In this document: piece by piece, positions 2,840-52,135 of the stretch | Layout: the number at the start of each line of letters is the position of its first letter | Position numbering within the stretch: position 1 is the first letter of the stretch | DNA from: Candidatus Poribacteria bacterium | GTDB lineage: Bacteria; Poribacteria; WGA-4E; WGA-3G | Length of the DNA: 64,000 bases | Direction: 5' to 3' | NCBI GenBank assembly: GCA_965200395.1 | Contig: CBDAUH010000003.1 | Span: 810,398-874,397 of the forward strand | Notes under the pieces: model-generated | What the model was told of the DNA's origin: nothing | Database searches by the model: none | Seen by the model: only the letters and a program-made list of their open reading frames with translations | Position numbers and translations under genes: made by a program

Positions 2840-3805
2840 ATGTACTGGAAATATCAGATGGCACGTATCATTGAGGTTGCACACTTAATCCACAGAGAAC
2901 CTCGTAAATGGACACGGCTTCGATTATCAGAACATTTTGGTGTCAATAAGACGACTATTCAACGCGATATAGACCTTTTGCGTGAAATGGGAATTGCAAT
3001 TATGCCTTGTGGTAGACAGGGATATGAGATGATTTCAGACTTCTTCCTGCCTGCTCTCAATTTGTCTTTTGAGGAGGCACTTGCACTAGTTATCGCAGCA
3101 GATTTCTATAAAGCAACGGAAGGGGAACACGCAATTGAAGTGCTTGATCAGGCAATTCACAAGATTACATGCAATTTGCCGGACCAGACGAATCGCGCGC
3201 TAAAGCAGCTCGCACCGAAGATTGAGGTGTCGTATCAACAAGTCAGTCCAATTGATGAAACTGAATCATATAAAGAGTTGTTATACCAAGCAAGCAGGGA
3301 AAGGACGAGGGTAATTATAACCTATAATTCCTTCAGCAGCCAAAAGGAGACTCGTCATAGACTTGCACCGTATGCGGTGCTGTTTCGTAAACGTGCCTGG
3401 TATGTCATCGGATGGTCTGAAACTACTAAACAGGTTTTTACCTTCCGTATCAACCGTATTAGTTCGCTTTCTATTACACATGGTGGTTATGAAATTCCCT
3501 CGGATTTCTCTGTTCAGAAATACCTTGAGAAAAGTTGGGATGTGATGCTTGGAGAAGATACACACGTTGTGATTTTATTTGCCAAACGTATTGCACCTTT
3601 GATTCAGGAGGTGAAATGGCATCCGACACAGCAGATACAAGAGGCAGATAAAGGAAGCTTTCGCTTTGAGGTAACAGTTGCAGGTTGGCAAGAGATCGGT
3701 TGGTGGGTTTTGGGTTGGGGACATGAGGCGAAGGTGATTAAACCGAAAGCATTGCGCGATTGGATCGCTCAAACAGCACGGAAAATGGTAAAGTTGTATG
3801 AATGA
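2840..3805 (+). CDS. WYL-domain transcriptional regulator (N-terminal HTH, WYL, C-terminal WCX-like)
   Basis: N-terminal DeoR-like HTH (FGVNKTTIQRDIDLLRE) and central WYL-like segment (YAVLFRKRAWYVIGW). The size of 321 aa is typical, and the gene sits upstream of the cas genes. Confidence 0.6.
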   Translation: MYWKYQMARIIEVAHLIHREPRKWTRLRLSEHFGVNKTTIQRDIDLLREMGIAIMPCGRQGYEMISDFFLPALNLSFEEALALVIAADFYKATEGEHAIEVLDQAIHKITCNLPDQTNRALKQLAPKIEVSYQQVSPIDETESYKELLYQASRERTRVIITYNSFSSQKETRHRLAPYAVLFRKRAWYVIGWSETTKQVFTFRINRISSLSITHGGYEIPSDFSVQKYLEKSWDVMLGEDTHVVILFAKRIAPLIQEVKWHPTQQIQEADKGSFRFEVTVAGWQEIGWWVLGWGHEAKVIKPKALRDWIAQTARKMVKLYE

Positions 3806-3859: not shown

Positions 3860-4150
3860 GGTTTAAGTTCTTTTTTCAGAATCGCGGATTACACCAAATC
3901 AACGGTATGAATGCCATTGAGGCATTCCCCGGATTACGCGGATTTCATTTTTCAGAATCGCGGATTTTCGTTTTTCAGAATCGCGGATTACACGGATTAC
4001 GCGGATTGACGCGGATTTTAAGAGTTTGGTATTCACATGTTTAATGGATAGATGGGCATGTTCTGGGACATCATATTTTCTGAGTTGAGGATTGCGCGAA
4101 TTAGGTTGTTCGTCTGAATCGCGGATTACGCAGATTGACGCGGATTAGAT
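3860..4150. repeat. Array of GAATCGCGGATT(A/T)C short repeats embedded in roughly 80-bp units, plus a roughly 140-bp block repeated at 18400..18560
   Basis: CGCGGATT-type units are visible many times. 3972..4110 aligns at about 85% identity with 18405..18545. Confidence 0.8.
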
Positions 4151-5065: not shown

Positions 5066-7291
5066 ATGGTCATAGATAACCAACAGAAAGATCAGATCTT
5101 AGCCGCTCACTTTGCGACGACAAACCTGAGTGACGCTGCGGCATTCTTTGAGGCGTTTGTTCATCGGATGCACTGTGACAGAAAGTTTGATCAACTCAAA
5201 CATTGGTGGGACGATATGGATGCATTGCGCGTAATCCGAGCCGCCGAGCATCATATAAGGAGGCAGACATCAGAAACCGAATCATCTCCAGATCCGATTG
5301 AAAGTCCCTCTGTGGGTGAGGATGGACGTATCCAGTTTATGGGAGAACCCATTGGTAAGGTTCATAATTATTACCGTACCGTGCTTCCACAAGAGATGCA
5401 GATTCGACTTGCTTATGACACCCTAATTGAGCGATTTATGGAATTCTTACAAAGAGAGAAATGTGCTATTCGACTTTCTGAAAATCAATTGACAATTAGC
5501 CTGTTTATTCCCGGTCCCGATTTTCAACTTGAAGCTGCATGGCAAAGGTTCATTGAAAAATTCGCTTACTCCGAAGAAGAATTGTATAAATCCTTCACAC
5601 TGTTTGTGAATAGCCTGAAACTGACTGACAGAGGTTTTGGTTACGTTCACTTTCCATCGGTAACGGAAGATATGAAACTTTTGCAAGCGGCGTTTTATAT
5701 TGCTACACTTGAAGAAAGGGTCGTTCGGTACCCTGATAATTATAGGAAAGCCAAAACTGACGAAGATCGACGGACTGCCGCGATGGAGAATAGGGGAGGG
5801 CTCAAGCAACTCTTAACCGAATTGCGCCATGAATTGCAGGCAAGCACTCACATCTCCGATGAATCCGATAAAGTTGTAAGGCTTTTCGATAAGGCTTTAG
5901 ATCTTTCTCGCCGATTCAACAAAGCTGGCAAGACCCAATTTTCTTACGGTACAGTAAAACCTCGCGCCCAAAATGGGAAAATTGAAGATAAGATTATTGA
6001 CATTCTAACTGAACAAGTAAAACCTCTACGGTGTCCACTTGCTTCAATTGACGAAATAGCACAAGATTCCGAACAGAGTGCTGGAGATACTGCCAAAAAT
6101 CGGTGTTACAGCTGTAGCAGACCTATGCCTCCCAGAAGCGAAATCCGTCGTTTTAAAGGCAAATTGGAGGCAAATCGATTTGTTTTCTCAGCACCTTCGC
6201 AAAGATTACAATCTGGCGGCGTGCAAGTTCAACCTCCTATATGTTTTGATTGTTTAACAGTTGCTTTCGGTTGTCCGATAAAATTAACAGGGGACGCGAT
6301 CATCGTTCGTTTGTCGCCTGACGAAGAAAACGAATCGGTTTCAACTAAGAGGTATCTCCAAATGTTAACCCTCGGTGAACTCAATTTGATTGCTGGGCAG
6401 TATCTACTGATTAAGTGTAACGATTATGTAGGTTCAACGCCCGTATCAGAAAAAATAGGACCGGTTCAATATACACTCTGGCGAGTAGCACAAACACTGC
6501 CAACTACTGTGCTCGAAAAGATGAAGTTCACACTTTTCGCTGGAGAATCTGGGATTCCGATGTCGAGTAGACATCTTGTTTGGTTAAGTCTACTCAATGA
6601 AATTTTTTCACCGAACCTTGTTGTTGGAAAACGAGATAACATTCCGCTCGGGCAGGCAATCCGACTCGTACAAAAAGACGAAGTAATCTCAGCAATCTAT
6701 AAACTAGTAACAGCAGAACCAGGCGAATCTAAACCACTCAAAAATTGGTCATATAGTGAAAAACGGAGTCTTGAGGAACTCCGCGAAAAACACTGTGACT
6801 TACTTGAACAATTCTCGAAAGGAGATAAACTCATGTCGAAACAGGCAGACTTTTACCGTGACGTAGCTGCCCTTACCGGGTTAACTTATGCTTATTGCGA
6901 TTACTTCCGCAGGGAGGTAAGAGAAAAAGAGAACGTTGACCCGGTCCGCGAAGTCAAGAAGCTCATTGAGAAAGTTATAAATCCGAGTTTTTTCAACTAC
7001 GAAGCCTCTGATGTTCTTTCTGGTACGAGAGCTACGATGTACCGAAATCACGATAACTATTTCTGTTACGATCAGGCGAAGTTGTTGTTGGAAAACACTC
7101 TCAAGGTGCAACTGTCTGATCGTGTAAGGTCCGATGAGAAAGGTCCCGAACCGCTGGCAATTTACTTTGACGACATTCTGAACGCTTACGCTGCGTTGTC
7201 TGAAAAATATGATAGTAAGGCACAGCAACGGAAGTTAACTTATCAACTTAAATTGAACCTCTACGCGAAGTTCGCATTCCTATTCAATTAA
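5066..7291 (+). CDS. cas8: Cas8/Cas10-like large subunit of a type I effector complex (741 aa, internal Cys-rich Zn-finger region)
   Basis: First gene of the cas operon with a strong RBS AGGAGG. Cys cluster CYSC…(37 aa)…CFDC. No HD motifs seen. The call rests mainly on position and size. Confidence 0.45.
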   Translation: MVIDNQQKDQILAAHFATTNLSDAAAFFEAFVHRMHCDRKFDQLKHWWDDMDALRVIRAAEHHIRRQTSETESSPDPIESPSVGEDGRIQFMGEPIGKVHNYYRTVLPQEMQIRLAYDTLIERFMEFLQREKCAIRLSENQLTISLFIPGPDFQLEAAWQRFIEKFAYSEEELYKSFTLFVNSLKLTDRGFGYVHFPSVTEDMKLLQAAFYIATLEERVVRYPDNYRKAKTDEDRRTAAMENRGGLKQLLTELRHELQASTHISDESDKVVRLFDKALDLSRRFNKAGKTQFSYGTVKPRAQNGKIEDKIIDILTEQVKPLRCPLASIDEIAQDSEQSAGDTAKNRCYSCSRPMPPRSEIRRFKGKLEANRFVFSAPSQRLQSGGVQVQPPICFDCLTVAFGCPIKLTGDAIIVRLSPDEENESVSTKRYLQMLTLGELNLIAGQYLLIKCNDYVGSTPVSEKIGPVQYTLWRVAQTLPTTVLEKMKFTLFAGESGIPMSSRHLVWLSLLNEIFSPNLVVGKRDNIPLGQAIRLVQKDEVISAIYKLVTAEPGESKPLKNWSYSEKRSLEELREKHCDLLEQFSKGDKLMSKQADFYRDVAALTGLTYAYCDYFRREVREKENVDPVREVKKLIEKVINPSFFNYEASDVLSGTRATMYRNHDNYFCYDQAKLLLENTLKVQLSDRVRSDEKGPEPLAIYFDDILNAYAALSEKYDSKAQQRKLTYQLKLNLYAKFAFLFN

Positions 7292-7307: not shown

Positions 7308-7524
7308 ATGGCAATTAACGTGAGATCAGGGCTTGAGAATAATTCGAATGAACCCCGTTTCCACTTTGATATTTATGCAATTCTTGAAGGAGGCCAAGAA
7401 CTTTATTTTGGGCATGAGACACAAGTAAACGTAAGTATTGTTGAAATGGTCAGTATTGCTTCACCTGATAGCACAAATGAAGAAAACGTAGTCGAGAAAT
7501 GTTATATTTCCCCTACAAAACGCC
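7308..7524 (+). pseudogene. cas7: cas7 N-terminal part (interrupted by the IS4-family insertion)
   Basis: The ORF runs into the IS left end at 7525. Its frame rejoins 8875..9644 after removing the IS plus the TSD. Confidence 0.6.
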
Positions 7525-8863
7525 CGCACTTACCCCCATTTTTTTTTGAATGCGTGTGTAGTTGTGTTCATAGGTTTCCAATGTTGTCATGTCAGTTCTT
7601 CTGCGGTGAGAAAGTTTATATCTCTCAAACAAGTCCTCTCGGTGAACAAGAGCAACGCCTCCTGCGTCCACACCTCGCGGATCATACGGTTGATGACACT
7701 GATCACGGAGTAAACTTTCCGCGTAGGGTGTAAAGTTTTTGCCCATCTGTCCGCAGCTTTTTCATAACACAGGAACGCCAAACCATAAGCCACGACTGCC
7801 AACAAAAACAGAACTTCCATCCGGGGCTGTTCGTTCTTTCTCAAAACGAGTGCTTTGAAACCGAAGTTCGTTTTCAAGTCTCTGAACCCGTGTTCAATCT
7901 GTGTCCGCCGCTTGTAGCAAGTTCGCAGGGGGTTCCCCTGAAGCCGATTGGAGATAAGATATAACGGGTCTTTCTTGGTGTGCTGTCCCCCAACATAGAG
8001 TGCCACAGGCACCTGCTCCGTGTAGTGATAAAGCACTTGTGGGTAAAAACCATTTGCCACTTCTTCAAGGCACTGCTTGTTGCCTGCTATACGCACACCA
8101 ACATTGCGTGGCACACGCATCAAGTAGCAGATGCCTTGCCCCTCAAAAAACTTGAGGATCGCTCTCGCTCGGGCGAACCCTCTGTCAAAAACCAACACAG
8201 GCTCCCGACTATCCCCTAACACTTCAGCAACGCGACTATGGACATCACAACAGAACTGCTGAACTAAATCGTTATGTCCTTGATAGGTGCCATCTTTGAG
8301 CATCTCATTTTTATACAGAACCCAATAGAGCGGGATCGCACGATTGCGAAACGGAAGGGCTGCAACAATCGCCTTCCATCCGCCCGGTAAATCTGTCTCG
8401 TCTATCAGCACAAGCAGATGCTGCATCCCCACAGAACGACACACACTGACAACTATATGTGACAACCAGGCACCCTTCACCGCTGCAACCGGAAAATAGG
8501 TGTCAATAAACCGCAACACACGCTTTTGCTTAGACTTGTCGTGTTTCACACGGATAGGTAGATGTGAGGCAATCGATTGAATACGAAAACTCGGGGCTAC
8601 ACACACAGCCTGTAGCATCAAATAAAAGTTGCGGAGCGTCGGTTTTTTGATACAAACCCCGTTGAAAACTTTACGAAAACCTGTTATAATCTTTCTGGGG
8701 TGTACCCAACTAAGGGTATATTTCATAAGAATACCTCCCTGCCGGTTTTTCACCGACATTGGTTTATATGGAGGTATTCTACCATAACCCATCAGACTTT
8801 CCAACTTATTTCTATACACACACACGCCTACACATACCGCATACAAAAATGGGGGTAAGTGAG
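7525..8863 (-). mobile_element. IS4-family element copy 1, 1339 bp, 19-bp terminal inverted repeats (CGCACTTACCCCCATTTTT / AAAAATGGGGGTAAGTGAG), TSD 9 bp (flanks match over 11 bp, TACAAAACGCC)
   Basis: Identical to 14116..15454. The flanks (7514-7524 and 8864-8874) are direct repeats. Confidence 0.85.
7587..8846 (-). CDS. IS4-family DDE transposase (LVLIDETD; C-terminal Y..R…E…K motif), 419 aa
   Basis: Same ORF as 14178..15437. The 508-aa ORF in the track (7587..9113) is a read-through artefact beyond the IS end. Confidence 0.8.
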   Translation of the reverse strand: MYAVCVGVCVYRNKLESLMGYGRIPPYKPMSVKNRQGGILMKYTLSWVHPRKIITGFRKVFNGVCIKKPTLRNFYLMLQAVCVAPSFRIQSIASHLPIRVKHDKSKQKRVLRFIDTYFPVAAVKGAWLSHIVVSVCRSVGMQHLLVLIDETDLPGGWKAIVAALPFRNRAIPLYWVLYKNEMLKDGTYQGHNDLVQQFCCDVHSRVAEVLGDSREPVLVFDRGFARARAILKFFEGQGICYLMRVPRNVGVRIAGNKQCLEEVANGFYPQVLYHYTEQVPVALYVGGQHTKKDPLYLISNRLQGNPLRTCYKRRTQIEHGFRDLKTNFGFKALVLRKNEQPRMEVLFLLAVVAYGLAFLCYEKAADRWAKTLHPTRKVYSVISVINRMIREVWTQEALLLFTERTCLRDINFLTAEELT

Positions 8864-9644
8864 TACAAAACGCCGGGGTGTCGAACGTCGCGCATTGATT
8901 TGGGCCCCAACAGATACTGGGTTGCTCGGTGATATGTGGAATTGCGGTATCCCCCACACTTGTAGTAAAGCCGAATGTCCTATCTGTCGTGTTTTCGGGG
9001 GGCTTATTACAAGTAAAATTGAAGTCGATACCGAAGTCGAAGGTGAGAAGGAAGAACGGCCTGCGACAACCCTCGTCGGGCGCCTCACGCACAGTGGTGG
9101 GGTAGCAATCCAAGAGTTAGGGCCTGAAGAAAAACAGCGGGCAATGCATCCTTCACGACTCCGGCAAGAAGGAGATGAAACACCGATGCCCTTCAAACGA
9201 GAGTACAATCAGCCAGGATTGCTCTACCCGGTTTATAACCATTGTATGAGTATAACGGAAAGAGAATTTTCTTCTGTGGCTTATGCGTTTATGGGCGCGT
9301 TAGCACGATTAGGGGCAGGTAATCCGAAAGGTGTTAAGATTCATGATGCCCCGAAGTTGATAAAAGAGGACGTGGATGAACCCTGGATTGTTGTTGATCG
9401 ATACCTCGCTCCGCTTGGCAAGCGTCCTATTGTTTCACCTGCCATTGGAGATGTTGAAGAAGCAAAAAGTCAGTTTAGAGAAGCCGCTTTTTCTGTTGCA
9501 GGCAACAAGCGAGAACCTACCAGCGAGTTAACACAAGGGAATTTTCACCGATACATTGGGGATGCTGCTATTGCCAAGTTATCGACGTATCTGGTTCAAT
9601 TTGAAGAGGAGGTACTCGATGTGGATGCTGGAACTAACAATTAA
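8864..9644 (+). pseudogene. cas7: cas7 C-terminal part (about 257 aa) with a C-x5-C-x4-C-x2-C zinc finger
   Basis: Continues the frame of 7308..7524 (…ISPTKR|RGVERRAL…). The reconstructed protein is about 330 aa and lies between the large subunit and cas5. The Zn finger is CGIPHTCSKAECPIC. Confidence 0.5.
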
Positions 9645-10401
9645 ACCGACATCGGGATTGACGTTCCGACGGATGCCATCATCTATCTTGCATATCAGTA
9701 CGTACCCGTTTCTGCCGCCGACGACGATGTCCGGTTTCCTCCGCCGACTTAAGCTGCTGGAAGCCGGGCATCTCCCGGAAACCGCCGTTAAAAATCCGGA
9801 TTACTACGCGCTGCCCCCTCAACTTTGCACCCTTGGGGCATATCCGAAAGTCAACGAGCATCGCATTCATACAACAAAGCGTCAGGGCATCAGATCTTTC
9901 AACCATAACGCCTTTTCGCGAATCGTTCTTTACCAATCCACAAAGGAAGTATATCAACTTCATACATGGGAATACCTCTTCGCGGAGAAGCTTATCGGTT
10001 ATGTAGTTTCAGAAGATGAAAACTTGCTAAACCAATTAAAAACGGTTAAAAACTTCGGTTGTAAAATTGGCAAAGAAGGATACGCTTATGTAGATCAGAT
10101 TAGGGGACCGACAGAGCTCAGTTTAGAACACGTAACCGCGAAACCTGATACGCTCCTGCCTGGAGCAGTACTTGTCGGAGTTCCATGTGAGGCGTTTCCA
10201 CTGTACCGTTACGCTTGGAAAACAGGGATATCTGAAAACACAAACCTTGAATACCCAGAACCAAGCGCTATTGAGGGATTCGTTCCATTTGTCGCCGGAG
10301 AGATTCACGGCGAGATTGAACTTGATTACTATACTGATGGGAACGTCTATCTTCCGAAACCTTTCGTTGATGAATTGTGGGAAGGAGAAATAAATGACTA
10401 A
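9619..10401 (+). CDS. cas5: Cas5 (N-terminal motif STYPFLPPTTMSGFLRR typical of Cas5)
   Basis: Cas5-type N-terminal signature (Y-P-x-P-P-x-T-x-x-G). Overlaps the cas7 end in the coupled-translation manner. Confidence 0.6.
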   Translation: MWMLELTIKPTSGLTFRRMPSSILHISTYPFLPPTTMSGFLRRLKLLEAGHLPETAVKNPDYYALPPQLCTLGAYPKVNEHRIHTTKRQGIRSFNHNAFSRIVLYQSTKEVYQLHTWEYLFAEKLIGYVVSEDENLLNQLKTVKNFGCKIGKEGYAYVDQIRGPTELSLEHVTAKPDTLLPGAVLVGVPCEAFPLYRYAWKTGISENTNLEYPEPSAIEGFVPFVAGEIHGEIELDYYTDGNVYLPKPFVDELWEGEIND

Positions 10402-11179
10402 CGTAAAAGATACTGTAAAAGTAGGTCGAGTTTTCTTTGAACCTGAGAGCGGTCCCAATGTAAAAAACGTGACTGTTCTCACATTGGATAGTCACGTTGG
10501 AAACGTTGTCGAGTTAGTAAAAAGGTTCGATTCCAATTATTTCAAAGTTGATCACAGCGAAACTCACAACCTTCTGATACGCGCGGCGGAGAAACATGAT
10601 AATGCGAAACCTGAAACCTTCCGCGTAACCTACCGAAGTTGGAAGGAAAACGGACGTAAATCCATCGGTTATTCCTTCGCGGGACATAGGTTTAGGGTTT
10701 CAGATACTGATCGCTATGTTGAATTACTCATCCGATTGCATCATGAATTTTCTATAGATGGAATTGTAGAAGCACAAGCGCAGCTCAAAGCATTGGAACA
10801 GTATTCTAATGAACAGATAAAAAGATTTCCAATCGACCTCTATGTTCTGGAAATGTGCGATCAAATTGAAGCTGAACTTGAGACCTACGCTTTCACGAAG
10901 GATGTACAGCCTCGCGTCTTTATGGATTTTCACTCGCGCATGCGTGAGGATGAAAAAACTATTGAGGTTAACCCGTATCCATTTGATGAGAAAAGGATCC
11001 GCCTACCACTTGAATATTATGAGTTCGATATTCCAGCAAAATGCCGTGCCCAAATAGCCGCGGCTTTGGAAGAAAATAATCGAGAAAAAGGCTTGGACTT
11101 CCTCCATAAAATGATTATTGATGTAAATAAAAATACGGAATGTCAAAAGAAGGAGATGATTTTATGTCAAGCACCTTGA
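10394..11179 (+). CDS. cas3'': Standalone HD nuclease (Cas3'')
   Basis: HD-domain motifs LDSHVGNV (I), AAEKHDNAK (II), FAGHRF (III), IRLHHEF (IV). Lies immediately upstream of the Cas3 helicase. Confidence 0.6.
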   Translation: MTNVKDTVKVGRVFFEPESGPNVKNVTVLTLDSHVGNVVELVKRFDSNYFKVDHSETHNLLIRAAEKHDNAKPETFRVTYRSWKENGRKSIGYSFAGHRFRVSDTDRYVELLIRLHHEFSIDGIVEAQAQLKALEQYSNEQIKRFPIDLYVLEMCDQIEAELETYAFTKDVQPRVFMDFHSRMREDEKTIEVNPYPFDEKRIRLPLEYYEFDIPAKCRAQIAAALEENNREKGLDFLHKMIIDVNKNTECQKKEMILCQAP

Positions 11180-13050
11180 ACGCCTATAAACAATTTACGG
11201 AATTTGCTCCTAATCCAATGCAGGAAGAACTTTTTACTTACATCGCCCCGAAAGGCGAAAATCCTGCACTGCTACTTAAGGCACCCACGGGCAGTGGAAA
11301 AACAGAGGCTGTACTCATACCGAGTCTTGATTCCAATCGCAGGCTTTTTCTGATTTTCCCTTCTAGAAGCCTTGTTGACGATCAGATTAGTCGGTGTGAA
11401 GAATACCTTGAACGAGCATCATCAGAAAATATGAATAGATCTTATACATTAGTCGTTGACACAGGAGCCGAATCCCAGCGTACCGTTTTTACAAAAGGCG
11501 AGAGAGAAAAACCTGCAAGACGACATCTCTATGATGGTGATGTAATTCTCACAACATTTGATAAATTTCTATACCGCTTTTTCGGATTTGGTGAACCTAA
11601 GAAATCTTATATTTTCCCGTTCCGTATTCACTACGGCCAACGTCGAAATCTGTTTTGTTTCGACGAGGTTCACGCCTATGATCAGGTTGCGTTTGTCAAC
11701 TTTCAACGCCTTGTCAAGGCACTTTACAAAGTTAATTTAGATATGGTTGTCATGACTGCGACGATGCCTGATACATACCAAAATGAATTGGATTTCTTGG
11801 ATACGGTTGACTATATTACAGACGATAAAAATAAGCTGGAATTGGCAAGAGTGCAAAAAAGGCAGTATCCCAATAAAGCGGTCAAGTGTATTGCTGCAAA
11901 GCCCAAAGAAGTTAAGAACAAAATATGTGATTATGTCTCGGAACGATATGAAACAGATAAACGGATTATTGTTACTATTGAAACAATTAAAGACCTCATT
12001 CTAGTTTACAATGACTTGAAAGAAGTAAATGGTGGAGAGAATATTTTTCTTTACCACGGGCGTCTCTCTAATCCACAGCGCAAGATGGTTTATCGTAACC
12101 TGAAGAATCTTGAAAAAGAGAATAAGGGGTACCTCCTTTTCACGACGAGTGCTATTGAGGTAGGATGTGACCTTGACGCGCATCTGCTCATCACCGAGTT
12201 GTGCAACCCCGATTCGCTTATTCAACGCGTAGGAAGGTGCAACCGCAAAGGGCAGATTCCTAACGCTGAAATCGCCATTGTAGGTAACAAAATTCCATCT
12301 TTTCTCTCTATCCTTACTGAAGAAAAAACAGAGAAATATCTTGAGAAATTGCGGCAACAGAGTGGCACTAACTTCAAACCAGACGACATCCTTGAACTCA
12401 TGGAATACACACCACATTCCGATTACAGGGCAGAAGTACTTTTTGACATGCTTTATGAATACGTTTATGAAGCACGTCTCGAAAACAAACCGCTGCACGA
12501 TAGAGGACTTGTGATTACACGGAGTTTTGAACCCTCAATTACGCTTACAACCAAAGTCCCTGAAGAAGAGGCAAAGCACCAACCCGAAAATGCTGTAAGT
12601 GTGTCTATCCGAAATTGTATAGCGAGACGAGAAGATAATGAGTCTATCAACCCAGATTTTAAGGTATACCATAGGTTTTATGATAAGTATTATGAGGAAT
12701 TTAAATTTGTTGATCTTAACCGGCACGGAAGTGTCTACTTTAAAGAACTCTTTATTGAAGTTCCTGAATCTTATTTTTCTGAAGAGTTAGGCTACGTTGA
12801 ACCGCCCAAAGTATTTGAAGACCGGGGGACTCGCGGGTACCGTCGGAATTTTGTTTATCACACGACCGATGAAAACGGTAAACCTAAAGAAACATGGTTG
12901 CACTATCTGAAGGATTTGGAAAAGTCAGATCCAGAGGAAACATCATCTTTACTTCCAGAATCTGTTCAGACAGAACGTCACGAGTCGGTGGAATCTATTT
13001 TGTCGCACCCAGAAGGCGGTGAACAGTTGTCACTTTTTGATATTGATTAA
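11140..13050 (+). CDS. cas3': Cas3' DExH-box helicase (Walker A APTGSGKTEA, DEVH box CFDEVHAYD)
   Basis: SF2 helicase motifs, and a size of about 630 aa typical of a Cas3 helicase without HD. The true start is probably Met at 11164. Confidence 0.7.
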   Translation: MSKEGDDFMSSTLNAYKQFTEFAPNPMQEELFTYIAPKGENPALLLKAPTGSGKTEAVLIPSLDSNRRLFLIFPSRSLVDDQISRCEEYLERASSENMNRSYTLVVDTGAESQRTVFTKGEREKPARRHLYDGDVILTTFDKFLYRFFGFGEPKKSYIFPFRIHYGQRRNLFCFDEVHAYDQVAFVNFQRLVKALYKVNLDMVVMTATMPDTYQNELDFLDTVDYITDDKNKLELARVQKRQYPNKAVKCIAAKPKEVKNKICDYVSERYETDKRIIVTIETIKDLILVYNDLKEVNGGENIFLYHGRLSNPQRKMVYRNLKNLEKENKGYLLFTTSAIEVGCDLDAHLLITELCNPDSLIQRVGRCNRKGQIPNAEIAIVGNKIPSFLSILTEEKTEKYLEKLRQQSGTNFKPDDILELMEYTPHSDYRAEVLFDMLYEYVYEARLENKPLHDRGLVITRSFEPSITLTTKVPEEEAKHQPENAVSVSIRNCIARREDNESINPDFKVYHRFYDKYYEEFKFVDLNRHGSVYFKELFIEVPESYFSEELGYVEPPKVFEDRGTRGYRRNFVYHTTDENGKPKETWLHYLKDLEKSDPEETSSLLPESVQTERHESVESILSHPEGGEQLSLFDID

Positions 13051-13061
13051 GGAGACACCCC

Positions 13062-13889
13062 ATGCCTATCAGCACACGCATCTCACTCGTCCCGGAAACT
13101 GATGTAACACTCCGCCCGACGATGGGACATCACGCACACGCGGCTTTTCTTGCTATCCTACGCAGAAGTGACCCTGATCTTGCGGAGACACTCCATGCGC
13201 AATCAACACAAAAACCCTTCACCGTCTCACCACTCGTCGCGAAGGCAAAGCAGTACGCCAAACAACTCCATATCCGGGCAGGCACGGAATGCAAACTCCG
13301 ATTCACATTCCTTGACGATACGCTCTTCACAGCTTTCGGGCGTGCCTTCCTAAAATTTCAACTCCCTAAGATTAGGCTTGGCAGCGCGATTTTTCAGGTC
13401 AAACAACTCGTTTCACATGCAACGGAGGCGGAGGATTGGAGCGGTAACACGACATATCCCGATCTCGTCCAATCAGCGAAAGCGGAGGCGGACATTCGTC
13501 TCAAATTCCATTCGCCGACAGCCTTTCGTACTCTCACACCGCAGGGACAGAAAACGTATAACCACACGCAAGTCGATCCTATTCGGTGCTATCAGAGTTG
13601 GATTAACAAATGGAACGCCTTTGCACCGTTCCAATTTGACAGAGACGAACTCCGTGCCTTTATTACAGAAAACGCCCGCGTTTCTCGTACCGAGACGCGC
13701 ACTCAAGCCCTCAATTTCGGCAGACAGACTGAGATAGGATGGGTAGGAACGTGCACATTTCATTTTCAACACAAAAACGTGCTTAATGAAGACCTACTCC
13801 GCGCAGCCAATTGCTTAGCAGATTTCGCATTTTACTGCGGCACAGGATATAAAACTACAATGGGAATGGGACAAACAAAACGGATTTAA
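13062..13889 (+). CDS. cas6: Cas6 crRNA endoribonuclease
   Basis: N-terminal catalytic His region (GHHAHAAFLAIL), KPFTVSPL motif, and C-terminal glycine-rich loop CGTGYKTTMGMGQ (GhGxxxxxGhG). Confidence 0.8.
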   Translation: MPISTRISLVPETDVTLRPTMGHHAHAAFLAILRRSDPDLAETLHAQSTQKPFTVSPLVAKAKQYAKQLHIRAGTECKLRFTFLDDTLFTAFGRAFLKFQLPKIRLGSAIFQVKQLVSHATEAEDWSGNTTYPDLVQSAKAEADIRLKFHSPTAFRTLTPQGQKTYNHTQVDPIRCYQSWINKWNAFAPFQFDRDELRAFITENARVSRTETRTQALNFGRQTEIGWVGTCTFHFQHKNVLNEDLLRAANCLADFAFYCGTGYKTTMGMGQTKRI

Positions 13890-13904: not shown

Positions 13905-14115
13905 ATGTCAGAAACATACATACCACTCTCACAGATAAACACTTATGTCTTTTGTCCCCGGCGATTCTATTACGAATCCATTGAGGGACATCAAGTCGTC
14001 AATGAGCATGTCGAAGAAGGCAAAATCAAACATGAACACGTTCACACAGCCGTGACAGATCGAAAAAAAGGAGACAAAACCATCTCTCGCCGACAATACC
14101 TCGCCTCCGATACAC
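13905..14115 (+). pseudogene. cas4-cas1: cas4-cas1 fusion, N-terminal Cas4 part (interrupted by IS4-family copy 2)
   Basis: Cas4 N-terminal Cys motif (YVFCPRRFYYE). The ORF runs into the IS at 14116. After removing the IS plus the TSD, the frame continues into 15464..16890. Confidence 0.75.
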
Positions 14116-15454
14116 CGCACTTACCCCCATTTTTTTTTGAATGCGTGTGTAGTTGTGTTCATAGGTCTCCAATGTTGTCATGTCAGTTCTTCTGCGGTGA
14201 GAAAGTTTATATCTCTCAAACAAGTCCTCTCGGTGAACAAGAGCAACGCCTCCTGCGTCCACACCTCGCGGATCATACGGTTGATGACACTGATCACGGA
14301 GTAAACTTTCCGCGTAGGGTGTAAAGTTTTTGCCCATCTGTCCGCAGCTTTTTCATAACACAGGAACGCCAAACCATAAGCCACGACTGCCAACAAAAAC
14401 AGAACTTCCATCCGGGGCTGTTCGTTCTTTCTCAAAACGAGTGCTTTGAAACCGAAGTTCGTTTTCAAGTCTCTGAACCCGTGTTCAATCTGTGTCCGCC
14501 GCTTGTAGCAAGTTCGCAGGGGGTTCCCCTGAAGCCGATTGGAGATAAGATATAACGGGTCTTTCTTGGTGTGCTGTCCCCCAACATAGAGTGCCACAGG
14601 CACCTGCTCCGTGTAGTGATAAAGCACTTGTGGGTAAAAACCATTTGCCACTTCTTCAAGGCACTGCTTGTTGCCTGCTATACGCACACCAACATTGCGT
14701 GGCACACGCATCAAGTAGCAGATGCCTTGCCCCTCAAAAAACTTGAGGATCGCTCTCGCTCGGGCGAACCCTCTGTCAAAAACCAACACAGGCTCCCGAC
14801 TATCCCCTAACACTTTAACAACGCGACTATGGACATCACAACAGAACTGCTGAACTAAATCGTTATGTCCTTGATAGGTGCCATCTTTGAGCATCTCATT
14901 TTTATACAGAACCCAATAGAGCGGGATCGCACGATTGCGAAACGGAAGGGCTGCAACAATCGCCTTCCATCCGCCCGGTAAATCTGTCTCGTCTATCAGC
15001 ACAAGCAGATGCTGCATCCCCACAGAACGACACACACTGACAACTATATGTGACAACCAGGCACCCTTCACCGCTGCAACCGGAAAATAGGTGTCAATAA
15101 ACCGCAACACACGCTTTTGCTTAGACTTGTCGTGTTTCACACGGATAGGTAGATGTGAGGCAATCGATTGAATACGAAAACTTGGGGCTACACACACAGC
15201 CTGTAGCATCAAATAAAAGTTGCGGAGCGTCGGTTTTTTGATACAAACCCCGTTGAAAACTTTACGAAAACCTGTTATAATCTTTCTGGGGTGTACCCAA
15301 CTAAGGGTATATTTCATAAGAATACCTCCCTGCCGGTTTTTCACCGACATTGGTTTATATGGAGGTATTCTACCATAACCCATCAGACTTTCCAACTTAT
15401 TTCTATACACACACACGCCTACACATACCGCATACAAAAATGGGGGTAAGTGAG
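14116..15454 (-). mobile_element. IS4-family element copy 2, 1339 bp, identical to copy 1, 9-bp TSD CCGATACAC (14107-14115 and 15455-15463)
   Basis: Exact sequence identity with 7525..8863 and flanking 9-bp direct repeats. Confidence 0.9.
14178..15437 (-). CDS. IS4-family DDE transposase, 419 aa
   Basis: ORF inside the IS. Carries LVLIDETD, DRGF and YKRRTQIEHGFRDLK motifs. Confidence 0.8.
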   Translation of the reverse strand: MYAVCVGVCVYRNKLESLMGYGRIPPYKPMSVKNRQGGILMKYTLSWVHPRKIITGFRKVFNGVCIKKPTLRNFYLMLQAVCVAPSFRIQSIASHLPIRVKHDKSKQKRVLRFIDTYFPVAAVKGAWLSHIVVSVCRSVGMQHLLVLIDETDLPGGWKAIVAALPFRNRAIPLYWVLYKNEMLKDGTYQGHNDLVQQFCCDVHSRVVKVLGDSREPVLVFDRGFARARAILKFFEGQGICYLMRVPRNVGVRIAGNKQCLEEVANGFYPQVLYHYTEQVPVALYVGGQHTKKDPLYLISNRLQGNPLRTCYKRRTQIEHGFRDLKTNFGFKALVLRKNEQPRMEVLFLLAVVAYGLAFLCYEKAADRWAKTLHPTRKVYSVISVINRMIREVWTQEALLLFTERTCLRDINFLTAEELT

Positions 15455-16890
15455 CCGATACACTCGGTGTCTCTGGCTACACCGATCTTGTTGAGGAGAA
15501 AGACGGTATTCCCTATCCAGTAGAATTCAAAAAAGCAGGCATGGGAAACTGGCTCAACGATCAAGTACAACTCTGTTTACAGGGACTTTTATTAGAGGAA
15601 AAGACAGGAATTTCTATTCCACACGGCTATATTTTCTATATCGGTTCTAAACGGCGTCGGAAGGTACCGTTTGATAAAGAACTCCGTAGGGCAACACACC
15701 AATACGTGGCAGAAGCGCGTTCACTCTTAGATACTAGACAGATTCCAGAACCTGTTCATGACAACCGGTGTAATGGGTGCAGCGTCCAATCAATCTGTCT
15801 ACCGGATGAGGTCGCCTACCTCCATGAGTTAGATGAGCGGCCCAAACGCATTAAACCCGCACTCGGTATAGACAATGTCTTATATGTTGACGAACCGGGC
15901 TGTGCAATCAAAAAGACAGGGGAGCGACTCCTTGTCGTCAAAGAAAGCGAAACAATTCGAGATATTCCACTGATTCATCTCGGACAGGTAGTTATCTGCG
16001 GTAATGTCAGTTTGACAACGCCTGCGATGCAAACGCTTTTACATGAGGGTATTCCCGTTGTGTTTCTCTCTGCCTATGGACGCTACCAGGGTGCTTTGAC
16101 ACCGCAAGTGTCACGCAATTCACTTTTGCGGACCGCACAGCATCGCGCCGCAGCTAACAATACACAGTGCCTTGACCTCTCGAAAGCATTTGTTCACGGA
16201 AAACTGGTGAACATGCGAACGATGCTTCAACGTAGAAAATGGCAGGCTTCGGATAGCACAGATTCGGCTTTAGAACCGCTGATCACCAACATAAAGACTA
16301 TACAAGCGATGGAAAAACGGATTGATAAGGCAACAGATATCACCGAATTGTTAGGATTGGAAGGCAACGCGTCCGCCGCCTATTTCCGTTCATTCAACTT
16401 TATGCTAAAAGAAGAAGTGGGATTCGATTTTCAAAAACGGAGTCGACGTCCACCCGCTGACCCAATAAACGCATTGCTCAGCTTCGCTTATTCATTATTG
16501 ACAGCAGATATAAACTCAGCACTTCAGGTTGTCGGCCTTGACCCTTATGTCGGTTATTTTCACCAGTTGAAATATGGTAAGCCTTGCCTTGCCCTGGATT
16601 TGATGGAGGAATTTCGACCAATTATTGCAGACTCCGTTGTCATTACCTTGATCAACAACCGGCGCATCAAACCTGAAGATTTTACGCAATCTCATGACGG
16701 TTGGTATCTGAAAGATAATTCTCGGAAAGTATTCTATGCTGCTTATGAAACGCGGAAAAATGAGACAATCACGCATCCTGTCTTCAAGTATAAACTGACG
16801 TTCCGCCGGGCAATGGAATTGCAAGCACGATTGCTGGCTAAATATCTTACAAGCGAAATTGACCGTTATACGCCCTTGACAATTCGGTAA
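15455..16890 (+). pseudogene. cas4-cas1: cas4-cas1 fusion, C-terminal part: Cas4 RecB-nuclease motifs (GYTDLVEEKDG, PVEFKKAG), Fe-S cysteines (CNGCSVQSIC), then a full Cas1
   Basis: Reconstructed junction …SDT|LGVSGYTDLVEEKDGIPYPVEFKKAGMGNW… is in frame with the 449-aa ORF at 15541. That ORF carries a Cas1-like C-terminal domain. Confidence 0.75.
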
Positions 16891-16919: not shown

Positions 16920-17192
16920 ATGCATTACACAGTTGCTTATGATATTACGGATGACAAACGTAGGAACAAAGTCGCTAAAATTTTGAAGGACTTTGGAGCC
17001 CGTGTGCAGTACAGTGTCTTTGAGTGTAATATTGACCGTCGTGCATTTCTACAGTTGCAAAATCGCTTGAAACAAGCTATGAATTTGAGCGAGGATACTA
17101 TAACATTTTATCATATCTGTGCTGCATGTGAGAAACAGATTGAACGTATCGGTCAAGATAAAGGACTTGATAAACAGTCGTATATTGTATAG
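16920..17192 (+). CDS. cas2: Cas2
   Basis: 90-aa protein with the typical Cas2 N-terminus (YDITDDKRRNKVAKILKDFGARVQYSVFEC). Lies directly upstream of the leader and array. Confidence 0.85.
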   Translation: MHYTVAYDITDDKRRNKVAKILKDFGARVQYSVFECNIDRRAFLQLQNRLKQAMNLSEDTITFYHICAACEKQIERIGQDKGLDKQSYIV

Positions 17193-17391
17193 AATTAAAC
17201 ATGAAATGGTTTCTGTGAGCGGCAGCGGGCCGGAAACGTCTAGACCCTCACAGAGAGGCATGATCTCTTATGTCTACTGACTTGAATCTTTTGCTCGGGC
17301 AGCTATACTGTTTTCCGCCAGTGCCGAAAGCTTCGCTCACAGAAACGTGTGCTGCTAACGCACACGTAATAAGGGTTCAAATAGAGCGGGC
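17193..17391 (+). promoter_or_regulatory. CRISPR leader (between cas2 and the first repeat). Contains a 12-bp long-range inverted repeat TTTCTGTGAGCG…CGCTCACAGAAA.
   Basis: Its position relative to cas2 and the array. The distal terminal repeat is degenerate, consistent with this being the leader end. Confidence 0.6.
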
Positions 17392-18385
17392 CTTGAAATC
17401 AAAAGCATCTCGATTACGAGATTGAAACATGCGCGTGACTGCCGGCAATATCCGTGAAGATATCTTGAAATCAAAAGCATCTCGATTACGAGATTGAAAC
17501 ATGCGCGTGACTGCCGGCAATATCCGTGAAGATATCTTGAAATCAAAAGCATCTCGATTACGAGATTGAAACATGCGCGTGACTGCCGGCAATATCCGTG
17601 AAGATATCTTGAAATCAAAAGCATCTCGATTACGAGATTGAAACTGAGATTGTAGCACATCGTCAACAAGCTGCCGTTTACTTGAAATCAAAAGCATCTC
17701 GATTACGAGATTGAAACTCCGCATAAGTGCCTTCATTGATAACAACATCCTTCGCACTTGAAATCAAAAGCATCTCGATTACGAGATTGAAACCATGGCA
17801 GCACGCACCCTGAGCTGCCGCCTGCAACCTTGAAATCAAAAGCATCTCGATTACGAGATTGAAACCGCAAAGACTGGGAGCGATCAGAGGCGAAGTATCT
17901 GCTTGAAATCAAAAGCATCTCGATTACGAGATTGAAACTAGACTGCTGATCGTGCCAGTACCAGTGCCACCAATAGAGCTTGAAATCAAAAGCATCTCGA
18001 TTACGAGATTGAAACCAAGTTGCTCATGGATTTCTGGCATGTAGTGGTCGGCCTTGAAATCAAAAGCATCTCGATTACGAGATTGAAACGTAGTTAAGCA
18101 GCCAGCTGACGCTGCCGTTGCTGGTAACTTGAAATCAAAAGCATCTCGATTACGAGATTGAAACGTGGTTAATAGGTTTCGCAAGATTTCATCTCTATTC
18201 ACTTGAAATCAAAAGCATCTCGATTACGAGATTGAAACTGTAGAGAGTAGCCAGCATGTAAGGGACATCCAGACATCTTGAAATCAAAAGCATCTCGATT
18301 ACGAGATTGAAACATTGGTGTTCCAGCAGGTCAGGCGATCGCAAGTTGCTTGAAATCAAAAGCATCTCGATGACGAGAATAGCGT
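17392..18385 (+). CRISPR. CRISPR array: 14 repeats (37 bp, CTTGAAATCAAAAGCATCTCGATTACGAGATTGAAAC) and 13 spacers (35-40 bp). The last repeat is degenerate at its 3' end. Spacers 1-3 are identical.
   Basis: Repeats at 17392, 17464, 17536, 17608, 17681, 17757, 17829, 17902, 17979, 18053, 18128, 18202, 18277 and 18349 (degenerate). There is an internal 6-bp stem ATCTCG/CGAGAT. The 3' ATTGAAAC matches the common Cas6-generated 8-nt 5' handle. Confidence 0.95.
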
Positions 18386-18607
18386 GGGTTCGGTTTCCTG
18401 GCTTGTCAGAATCGCGGATTTTCACGGATTACGCGGATTTACGCGGATTTTAAGAGTTTGGTATCCACACATCCTAATGGATAGATGGGCCTCTTCTGGG
18501 ATGTCACATTTTCTGGGCTGGGGATTGCGTGGATTTACTCGGATTGGTTGGTGCTTCCATGTGCTTTTCGTAGGATTTGGTGCTTTCGTCACCTTCTATG
18601 TGGCACG

Positions 18608-18722
18608 CTTGAAATCAAAGGCATCTCGATTACGAGATTGAAACGAAAGGCGAATTTGTGTTAAGATATTGTTATGTTCTGTTAACTTAAAATCAAGAGC
18701 GTCTCGATGACGAGAATAGCGT
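18608..18722 (+). CRISPR. Orphan mini-array: one variant repeat (A13G) + a 41-bp spacer + a degenerate terminal-type repeat, inside a duplicated array-end module
   Basis: Repeat 18608..18644 CTTGAAATCAAAGGCATCTCGATTACGAGATTGAAAC. Degenerate repeat 18686..18722, followed by the same GGGTTCGGTTTCCTGGCTTGTC(A/G)GAATCGCGGATT flank found at 18386..18420. Confidence 0.7.
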
Positions 18723-18724
18723 GG

Positions 18725-19110
18725 GTTCGGTTTCCTGGCTTGTCGGAATCGCGGATTACGCGGATTACACGGATTTACACGGATTTTGTTTCGGTGTTTC
18801 GAGGGGTTTTTCATAGGATTATGTGGATTTTTTTGTGGCTTCTGGTGTCTGTTTGCGTGCTACGATGCACAACCTGGAAAGGTTATGCTACAAAGAGTGC
18901 ACAACCTAACAGGTTATGCTACAAAGAGTGCACACAAGGCACAACCTGGAAAGGTTATGCTACAAAGAGGTCACACAAGGCACAACCTAAAGCACCTTGA
19001 AGTGCCAACCACCTGATCTGCGTCAATCCGCGATTCAGGAAAAGAGCACGCAAGAAGACACAGACTCTTACAAATCCGCGTCAATCCGCGTAATCTGTGT
19101 AATCCGCGAT
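18725..19110. repeat. MITE-like block bounded by about 45-bp inverted arrays of CGCGGATT units. Encloses three tandem copies of the dispersed hairpin repeat (CACAACCTGGAAAGGTTATGCTACAAAG).
   Basis: 18727-18790 (forward GAATCGCGGATTACGCGGATTACACGGATT…) versus 19022-19108 (reverse complement AATCCGCG… units). Internal repeats at 18868-18990. Confidence 0.5.
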
Positions 19111-19236
19111 TCTGACAAACAAAAATTCGCGTCCAAAAACGACAATTGAATGCCTCTGGCTGCAAAATATATTTTATATTTTGGACACCGAATTTGTGCT
19201 ATAATAATCCAAACCTTACTACTTTGGAGCGCGCAG

Positions 19237-51981: not shown

Positions 51982-51994
51982 CGTGAGTTACGAA

Positions 51995-52135
51995 GAGAGA
52001 TGCCTACTCTGTAAAGGTTATGCTACAACGGCACAACCTGGAAAGGTTATGCTACGAAGAGAGATGCCTACTCTGTAAAGGTTATGCTATAATGGCACAA
52101 CTTGTAAAGGTTATGCTACAAAATATGCTTCATAA
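51995..52135. repeat. Cluster of four copies of the dispersed GTAAAGGTTATGCTACAA / CACAACCTGGAAAGGTTATGCTAC repeat
   Basis: Copies at about 52003, 52033, 52072 and 52102. The same motif occurs at 18868-18990, 24884-24912 and 41038-41062. Confidence 0.8.

Follow-up and report, generated by a model that had tools for sequence, protein, structure and literature searches.

The three repeat-spacer units nearest the leader of a Poribacteria CRISPR array are identical, and this triplet is most probably (at about 0.8) the product of slippage or unequal recombination, acting in two successive steps after one normal acquisition of the spacer. All positions given below refer to the window, that is, to the whole 64-kb stretch of DNA that was analysed.

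The triplicated unit and its array

Three consecutive 72-nt units occupy the plus strand, as determined from the sequence and with a repeat finder. Each is composed of a 37-nt repeat (CTTGAAATCAAAAGCATCTCGATTACGAGATTGAAAC) and a 35-nt spacer (ATGCGCGTGACTGCCGGCAATATCCGTGAAGATAT). Unit 1 (17392-17463) comprises repeat 1 at 17392-17428 and spacer 1 at 17429-17463, unit 2 (17464-17535) comprises repeat 2 at 17464-17500 and spacer 2 at 17501-17535, and unit 3 (17536-17607) comprises repeat 3 at 17536-17572 and spacer 3 at 17573-17607. The second and third units are 100% identical to the first, and the earlier note was therefore right in describing spacers 1-3, within 17392-17607, as one and the same 35-mer. 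The units are in register, share the same orientation and form a whole number of repeat-plus-spacer modules. The repeat finder returned 109-nt copies starting at 17392, 17464 and 17536, all 100% identical, and the 72-nt periodicity is perfect over the 253 nt from 17392 to 17644, which correspond to four repeats and three spacers. With up to three mismatches allowed, the 35-mer has exactly three sites in the 64-kb window (17429, 17501 and 17573). A chance origin of the triplet was rejected, as 0 matches to the 35-mer are expected in shuffled sequence.

The whole array (17392-18385, plus strand) contains 13 identical 37-nt repeats and 13 spacers of 35-40 nt, of which 11 are distinct, and ends in a degenerate terminal repeat on the plus strand, located by the repeat finder at 18349-18385. 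The direct repeats are regularly spaced, and the distinct spacers are unrelated and similar in length. The possibility that the region is not a CRISPR array was rejected, as cas genes, a leader and polarity are all present. Folded as single-stranded DNA, the repeat forms a hairpin of -5.2 kcal/mol (z = -2.9). The related arrays that are complete, 27 in number, have a median of 62 spacers against 13 here, and so short an array is consistent with one in which loss and gain through the repeats are now the only changes.

The leader extends over 199 nt between cas2 and repeat 1 (17193-17391, plus strand) and aligns collinearly, up to repeat 1, with its counterparts in 32 related Poribacteria arrays. 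This alignment, together with the degenerate repeat that terminates the array on the opposite side, places the triplet at the true leader-proximal, newest end, as had been claimed. The leader contains a promoter-like TTGA...TATATTT site (17282-17309) in a region common to the related leaders, and a CGCTCACAGAA motif (17334-17344) conserved in most of them. The same motif forms one arm of a perfect 11-nt inverted repeat, whose other arm, TTCTGTGAGCG, is located at 17211-17221, the two arms being 112 nt apart; this putative element may be protein-binding or structural. In the related array L024, the leader carries, about 85 nt upstream of the first repeat (near 11870-11895), a segment that resembles a degenerate repeat (TCTCGATTATGAGATTGGAAC), and no similar segment was found in the other leaders compared with it. 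It may be what is left of a repeat, or a regulatory element that resembles one.

Beyond the main array, the array end itself is duplicated: the stretch 18349-18451, which comprises the terminal repeat and about 66 nt of trailer, recurs at 18686-18787 with 94 of 103 positions identical. Between these two copies, and thus downstream of the main array, a one-spacer mini-array is located, with a near-perfect repeat at 18608-18644 (1 mismatch) and a single 41-nt spacer. The mini-array and the duplicated trailer are the result of an older rearrangement of the same array. Short tandem repeats of the CGCGGATT(T/A) type are present at 3937-4017, 18410-18451, 18752-18787 and, inverted, at about 19061-19118; they flank the cas locus on both sides and surround the array trailer, and an inverted copy of TTGTCAGAATCGCGGATT...ACGCGGATTT is found among them. 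A similar string, ttgtcagaatcgcgga, is located 3' of the related array L020, and these repeats may represent a dispersed REP- or MITE-like element. Tandem 29-41-nt units with a palindrome-like core (AACCTGGAAAGGTTATGCTACAAAG) were observed at two distant intergenic sites, 18862-18991 and 51989-52122, and constitute a dispersed repeat family.

Two insertions in the cas operon

The cas genes, all on the plus strand, were scored with PADLOC models and NCBIfam/Pfam. Downstream of a WYL-domain regulator (2840-3805) the operon comprises cas8b (5066-7291; PADLOC Cas8b, 1.5e-118), a cas7b split into 7308-7524 and 8875-9644 (PADLOC Cas7b, 5e-109 for the reconstructed gene), cas5b (about 9619-10401; PADLOC Cas5b, 1e-78), a 261-aa gene recognised as an ORF (10394-11179), the cas3' helicase (11140-13050) and cas6 (13062-13889), both assigned by PADLOC and NCBIfam/Pfam, a cas4-cas1 fusion split into 13905-14115 and 15464-16890 (Cas1g model, 7.8e-155), and an intact cas2 of 90 aa (16920-17192) directly upstream of the leader. 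The subtype signals are mixed, with matches to I-B models for the effector genes and to I-G/I-D-like models for the adaptation genes; Cas1g is the best-scoring model for the Cas4-Cas1 fusion. As judged from these matches, the locus can be assigned to type I, with effector genes that are I-B-like and a Cas4-Cas1 fusion, and no firmer subtype is given. The 261-aa ORF gave no significant match in Pfam, NCBIfam or PADLOC, and among PDB sequences its single match, to a glycosyltransferase, was weak (E 0.0013). It contains EKHDNAK and LIRLHHEF motifs and occupies the position where a Cas3'' HD nuclease is expected, for which it is a tentative candidate. Spacer 11 (18165-18201) resembles the opposite strand of the operon's own cas5b (10014-10039) at 23 of 26 positions (blastn-short E = 0.07, about 0.9 Mb), and this match is probably due to chance.

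Both split genes are interrupted by an IS4-family IS on the minus strand. Copy 1 (7525-8863) splits cas7b and is bordered by an 11-bp target-site duplication (TACAAAACGCC). Copy 2 (14116-15454), which encodes a 419-aa DDE transposase on the minus strand (14178-15437), splits cas4-cas1 and is bordered by a 9-bp target-site duplication (CCGATACAC). The two copies, 1.34 kb in length, are 99.7% identical (4 differences) and have the same orientation within one cas operon. The cas4-cas1 fusion is broken after about 70 codons. Its 5' fragment (13905-14115, plus strand) encodes the N-terminal part of the Cas4 domain and ends in 9 nt that are one copy of the target-site duplication, and its 3' part (15464-16890, plus strand) still encodes half of the Cas4 domain, the C-terminal one, together with the complete Cas1 domain. 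In silico removal of copy 2 and one copy of the duplication yields an intact 545-aa Cas4-Cas1, collinear with the homologue from the related locus L002, which bears out the earlier claim that the fusion is disrupted. The same operation on copy 1 yields an uninterrupted 328-aa Cas7b. From an internal ATG at 15541, a 449-aa ORF can be read that keeps the whole Cas1 domain without the N-terminal part of the Cas4 domain; the part absent from it includes the GYTDLVE and VEFKK segments seen in the restored sequence, which we take to contain the Cas4 catalytic residues.

The matching target-site duplications and the frames restored by excision indicate two simple, recent transpositions with no later decay. 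Recombination between the IS copies as the cause of a rearrangement was rejected, as each copy has its own matching target-site duplication. The adaptation and interference modules were thus inactivated independently of each other and recently, and the locus should not be counted as active immunity. Logan contigs from the independent sequencing runs SRR33960553 and SRR33960549 match the window at 100% identity and terminate where the IS copies begin or end, which is consistent with the presence of the IS copies in those data too.

Repeat-mediated duplication as the probable origin of the triplet

When species-representative genomes were scanned with the ORF that contains Cas1, 44 loci were obtained at 69-90% identity, 42 of them in records titled Poribacteria, which are marine sponge symbionts. 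The comparison set consisted of 32 related Poribacteria arrays with 1,872 spacers and 1,834 adjacent pairs. Identical adjacent spacers were found in three of the 1,834 pairs (L005 53/54, L014 10/11 and L019 33/34), in agreement with the earlier statement that tandem identical spacers are uncommon, and among the 32 arrays there was no triplet and no duplicate at positions 1-2. Tandem duplications of whole blocks were observed in L004 (spacers 28-31 = 32-35, 4 units), L007 (64-65 = 66-67, 2 units) and, with one mismatch, L024 (80-82 = 83-85, 3 units), and dispersed duplicates in L005 (37/39), L008 (117/121), L014 (52/59 and 53-54/64-65) and L037 (19/27). The duplications in L014, L004, L007 and L024 come from chromosome-level assemblies, and the L019 doublet from a short-read MAG. 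Since block duplications of this kind cannot be produced by spacer acquisition, they indicate that repeat-mediated duplication operates in this lineage. The related arrays are very long, reaching 125 spacers in the fetched flank (for example L008, L016, L011, L005, L014 and L044), and no spacer is common to the present array and any of the 32. The 3' half of the repeat (CTCGATTACGAGATTGAAAC) is invariant across the related arrays L002-L045, and the 5' half is variable. Two paralogous loci are present in each of three genomes, PCPOR4 (L019, L023), PCPOR1 (L008, L027) and OZ242354 (L034, L036), and within one genome the 3' halves of the repeats of the two loci are near-identical.

In the proposed sequence of events, a single spacer would have been gained normally at the leader end while Cas4-Cas1 and Cas2 were still working. 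The 72-nt unit would then have been copied twice, from one to two and from two to three, by a process that, judging from precedent, would need no Cas protein. During replication, the nascent strand could re-anneal out of register on the neighbouring identical 37-nt repeat; alternatively, unequal recombination could occur between sister chromosomes. The hairpin-forming palindromic core of the repeat may favour such misalignment, and the identity of all 13 repeats provides substrates for it along the whole array. The first duplication would lengthen the identical tract from 37 nt to 109 nt (repeat-spacer-repeat), which would make the second step far likelier. In tandem repeats, a longer identical tract should lead to a higher rate of further steps, and a tract grown to 109 nt would make a triplet possible although doublets are rare. 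At the baseline seen in the relatives, about 0.16% per junction, the probability that two neighbouring junctions among 12 would each be hit independently is of the order of 1e-5 to 1e-4. Such a coincidence is very improbable, and the explanation therefore requires the second step to have been faster, as is assumed here. No spacer would have been added afterwards, and the triplet would still occupy position 1 for this reason, which fits the IS in cas4-cas1. Because cas7b is also split, there would probably be no effector complex for the three identical crRNAs to enter, and the additional spacer copies are probably neutral.

Similar events have been described in other bacteria. [quoted passage not shown] As in the present array, the duplications in the III-A and II-A systems of that species comprise whole units, in register, in the same orientation and adjacent to the leader (PMC8860593). 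They were, however, rare events, detected by PCR and deep sequencing in laboratory-grown cultures of a Firmicute carrying type II and type III systems (PMC8860593), whereas here a fixed, or at any rate assembled, triplet is found in an uncultured sponge symbiont whose array is of type I, and independence from Cas1 is deduced from the IS disruption. In CRISPRCasdb, about 3% of spacers are duplication candidates, of which 86% were classed as simple duplications and 1% as reacquisitions; the duplications were ascribed to replication misalignment, and duplicates were argued to create extra substrate for misalignment (PMC11472070), as is reasoned here for the step from two to three copies. That survey and the present case agree in that duplications are rare, mostly simple and attributed to misalignment of repeats. 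The SpacerPlacer paper, however, stresses the faster loss of duplicates (PMC11472070), whereas in the present case the lengthened homology is taken to promote additional gain. Natural Salmonella arrays also show duplication and triplication of spacer-repeat units (PMC3356390, PMC7712790). This single-unit microvariation of CRISPR1 and CRISPR2, which includes deletions, is like that described here (PMC3356390, PMC7712790), but it concerns a different phylum and subtype I-E, the triplications were not placed specifically at the leader end, and the cas genes carry no IS disruption. The leader-end triplet is therefore an instance of documented, ordinary array variation that is already known.

The earlier note had considered recombination the likelier cause on the ground that Cas4-Cas1 is disrupted. 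The preference itself is supported by the block duplications in the relatives, by the S. thermophilus experiments (PMC8860593) and by the CRISPRCasdb analysis (PMC11472070), but the reason given for it is weaker than it sounds, since the copies could predate the IS and a second paralogous locus could act in trans. As regards timing, a duplication after the inactivation, as had also been suggested, is compatible with the data, and the copies could also predate the IS. The units show zero differences among themselves, and the IS insertions are likewise young.

Alternative readings and significance

An assembly artefact or a mixed-population consensus, in which three units were assembled while the true copy number is one, two or variable, is an unlikely source of the triplet. 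The sequence comes from a metagenome-assembled genome, the locus is found in one assembly only, and tandem units sharing 109 nt of identity would be expected to vary in number within a population. When Cas2 and Cas6 were looked up as exact proteins, the matches were all k=31 Logan contigs, of 1,994 nt and 5,309 nt among those listed. Such contigs are unable to resolve the repeat, and the three matching short-read contigs, which break off within the IS and after 30 nt of repeat 1, are uninformative on copy number. However, short tandem repeats are usually collapsed, not expanded, by assemblers, and the 253-nt tract fits one read on most platforms. Moreover, the 1.53 Mb source contig suggests a contiguous, probably long-read assembly, and similar doublets and block duplications are present in independent assemblies of relatives. 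Comparison with sister genomes, which had been proposed as a check, yielded no sister array in the collections. At 90% clustering, Cas6 and the truncated Cas1 are each alone in their cluster, the nearest Cas2 among the matches listed differs at at least 10 of 90 residues, and no record was found in an exact-protein look-up of the 763-aa protein encoded downstream.

It is quite improbable that the copies were acquired repeatedly, the same prespacer being integrated three times at the leader from an abundant or strongly preferred protospacer. In the sequence itself, the two routes are alike, as slippage or recombination and repeated integration both give identical repeats and spacers. The copies occupy the exact insertion site of new spacers, and in the SpacerPlacer analysis misalignment is reduced at array boundaries, which slightly disfavours position 1 as a site of misalignment (PMC11472070). 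Integration could have been carried out by the intact Cas4-Cas1, before the IS insertion, by the product of the surviving 449-aa ORF, which has its own ATG and whose Cas1 domain is intact, as is cas2, or by a paralogous locus acting in trans, which is conceivable given the two paralogous loci in several Poribacteria genomes. Against this, the local adaptation gene is split and deprived of the N-terminal part of its Cas4 domain, and no further cas1 or cas2 is found within the 64-kb window. None of the 32 related arrays (0/32) has identical spacers at positions 1 and 2, although their loci appear active, and reacquisition accounts for only about 1% of the duplicate spacers in CRISPRCasdb (PMC11472070).

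The search for a target points in the same direction. The earlier note had proposed comparing the spacer with viral and plasmid databases, and no protospacer was found in the phage, plasmid and IMG/VR collections. By blastn, the whole array had no match in 50,697 phage and 72,556 plasmid records. The triplicated spacer had no IMG/VR match, either exactly or with three patterns carrying N at every third base (wobble patterns, which permit synonymous divergence), and no JGI metagenome match, either exactly or with one wobble pattern; spacers 4, 5 and 7 had no exact IMG/VR match. No self-target of the triplicated spacer was present within the window or in the related loci, which amount to about 0.8 Mb. 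In these searches, no target with a PAM was found in a mobile element, so that neither an abundant target nor a PAM can be demonstrated in the searched collections. In addition, no spacers against the same target are located nearby, and none from a shared target are interleaved with the copies.

Selected dosage amplification, in which a slippage product was kept because three copies of the newest crRNA aided anti-phage defence before the inactivation, is most improbable: the amplified spacer is indeed the newest and a triplet exceeds the neutral baseline expectation, both circumstantial points, but the effector gene cas7b is now broken and offers no present benefit, no target was found in the phage, plasmid, IMG/VR and JGI searches, and relatives with apparently active loci show no leader-end amplification. 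It is likewise very doubtful that the triplet is non-neutral in a wider sense, as dosage amplification of the newest crRNA, selected during a phage encounter shortly before the inactivation, or as aberrant repeated integration by a Cas1 deprived of Cas4 and expressed from the gene truncated by the IS. If that were true, leader-end spacer amplification would be a regulated or mechanistically distinct output of adaptation.

Summarizing, the probable origin of the triplet by two steps of slippage or unequal recombination matters little beyond this genome. In strain typing or in matching spacers to viruses for this MAG, 11 distinct main-array spacers should be counted, not 13. The locus would be a clean natural example of a CRISPR array that alters only by repeat-mediated gain and loss, its newest unit having expanded like a 72-nt minisatellite.
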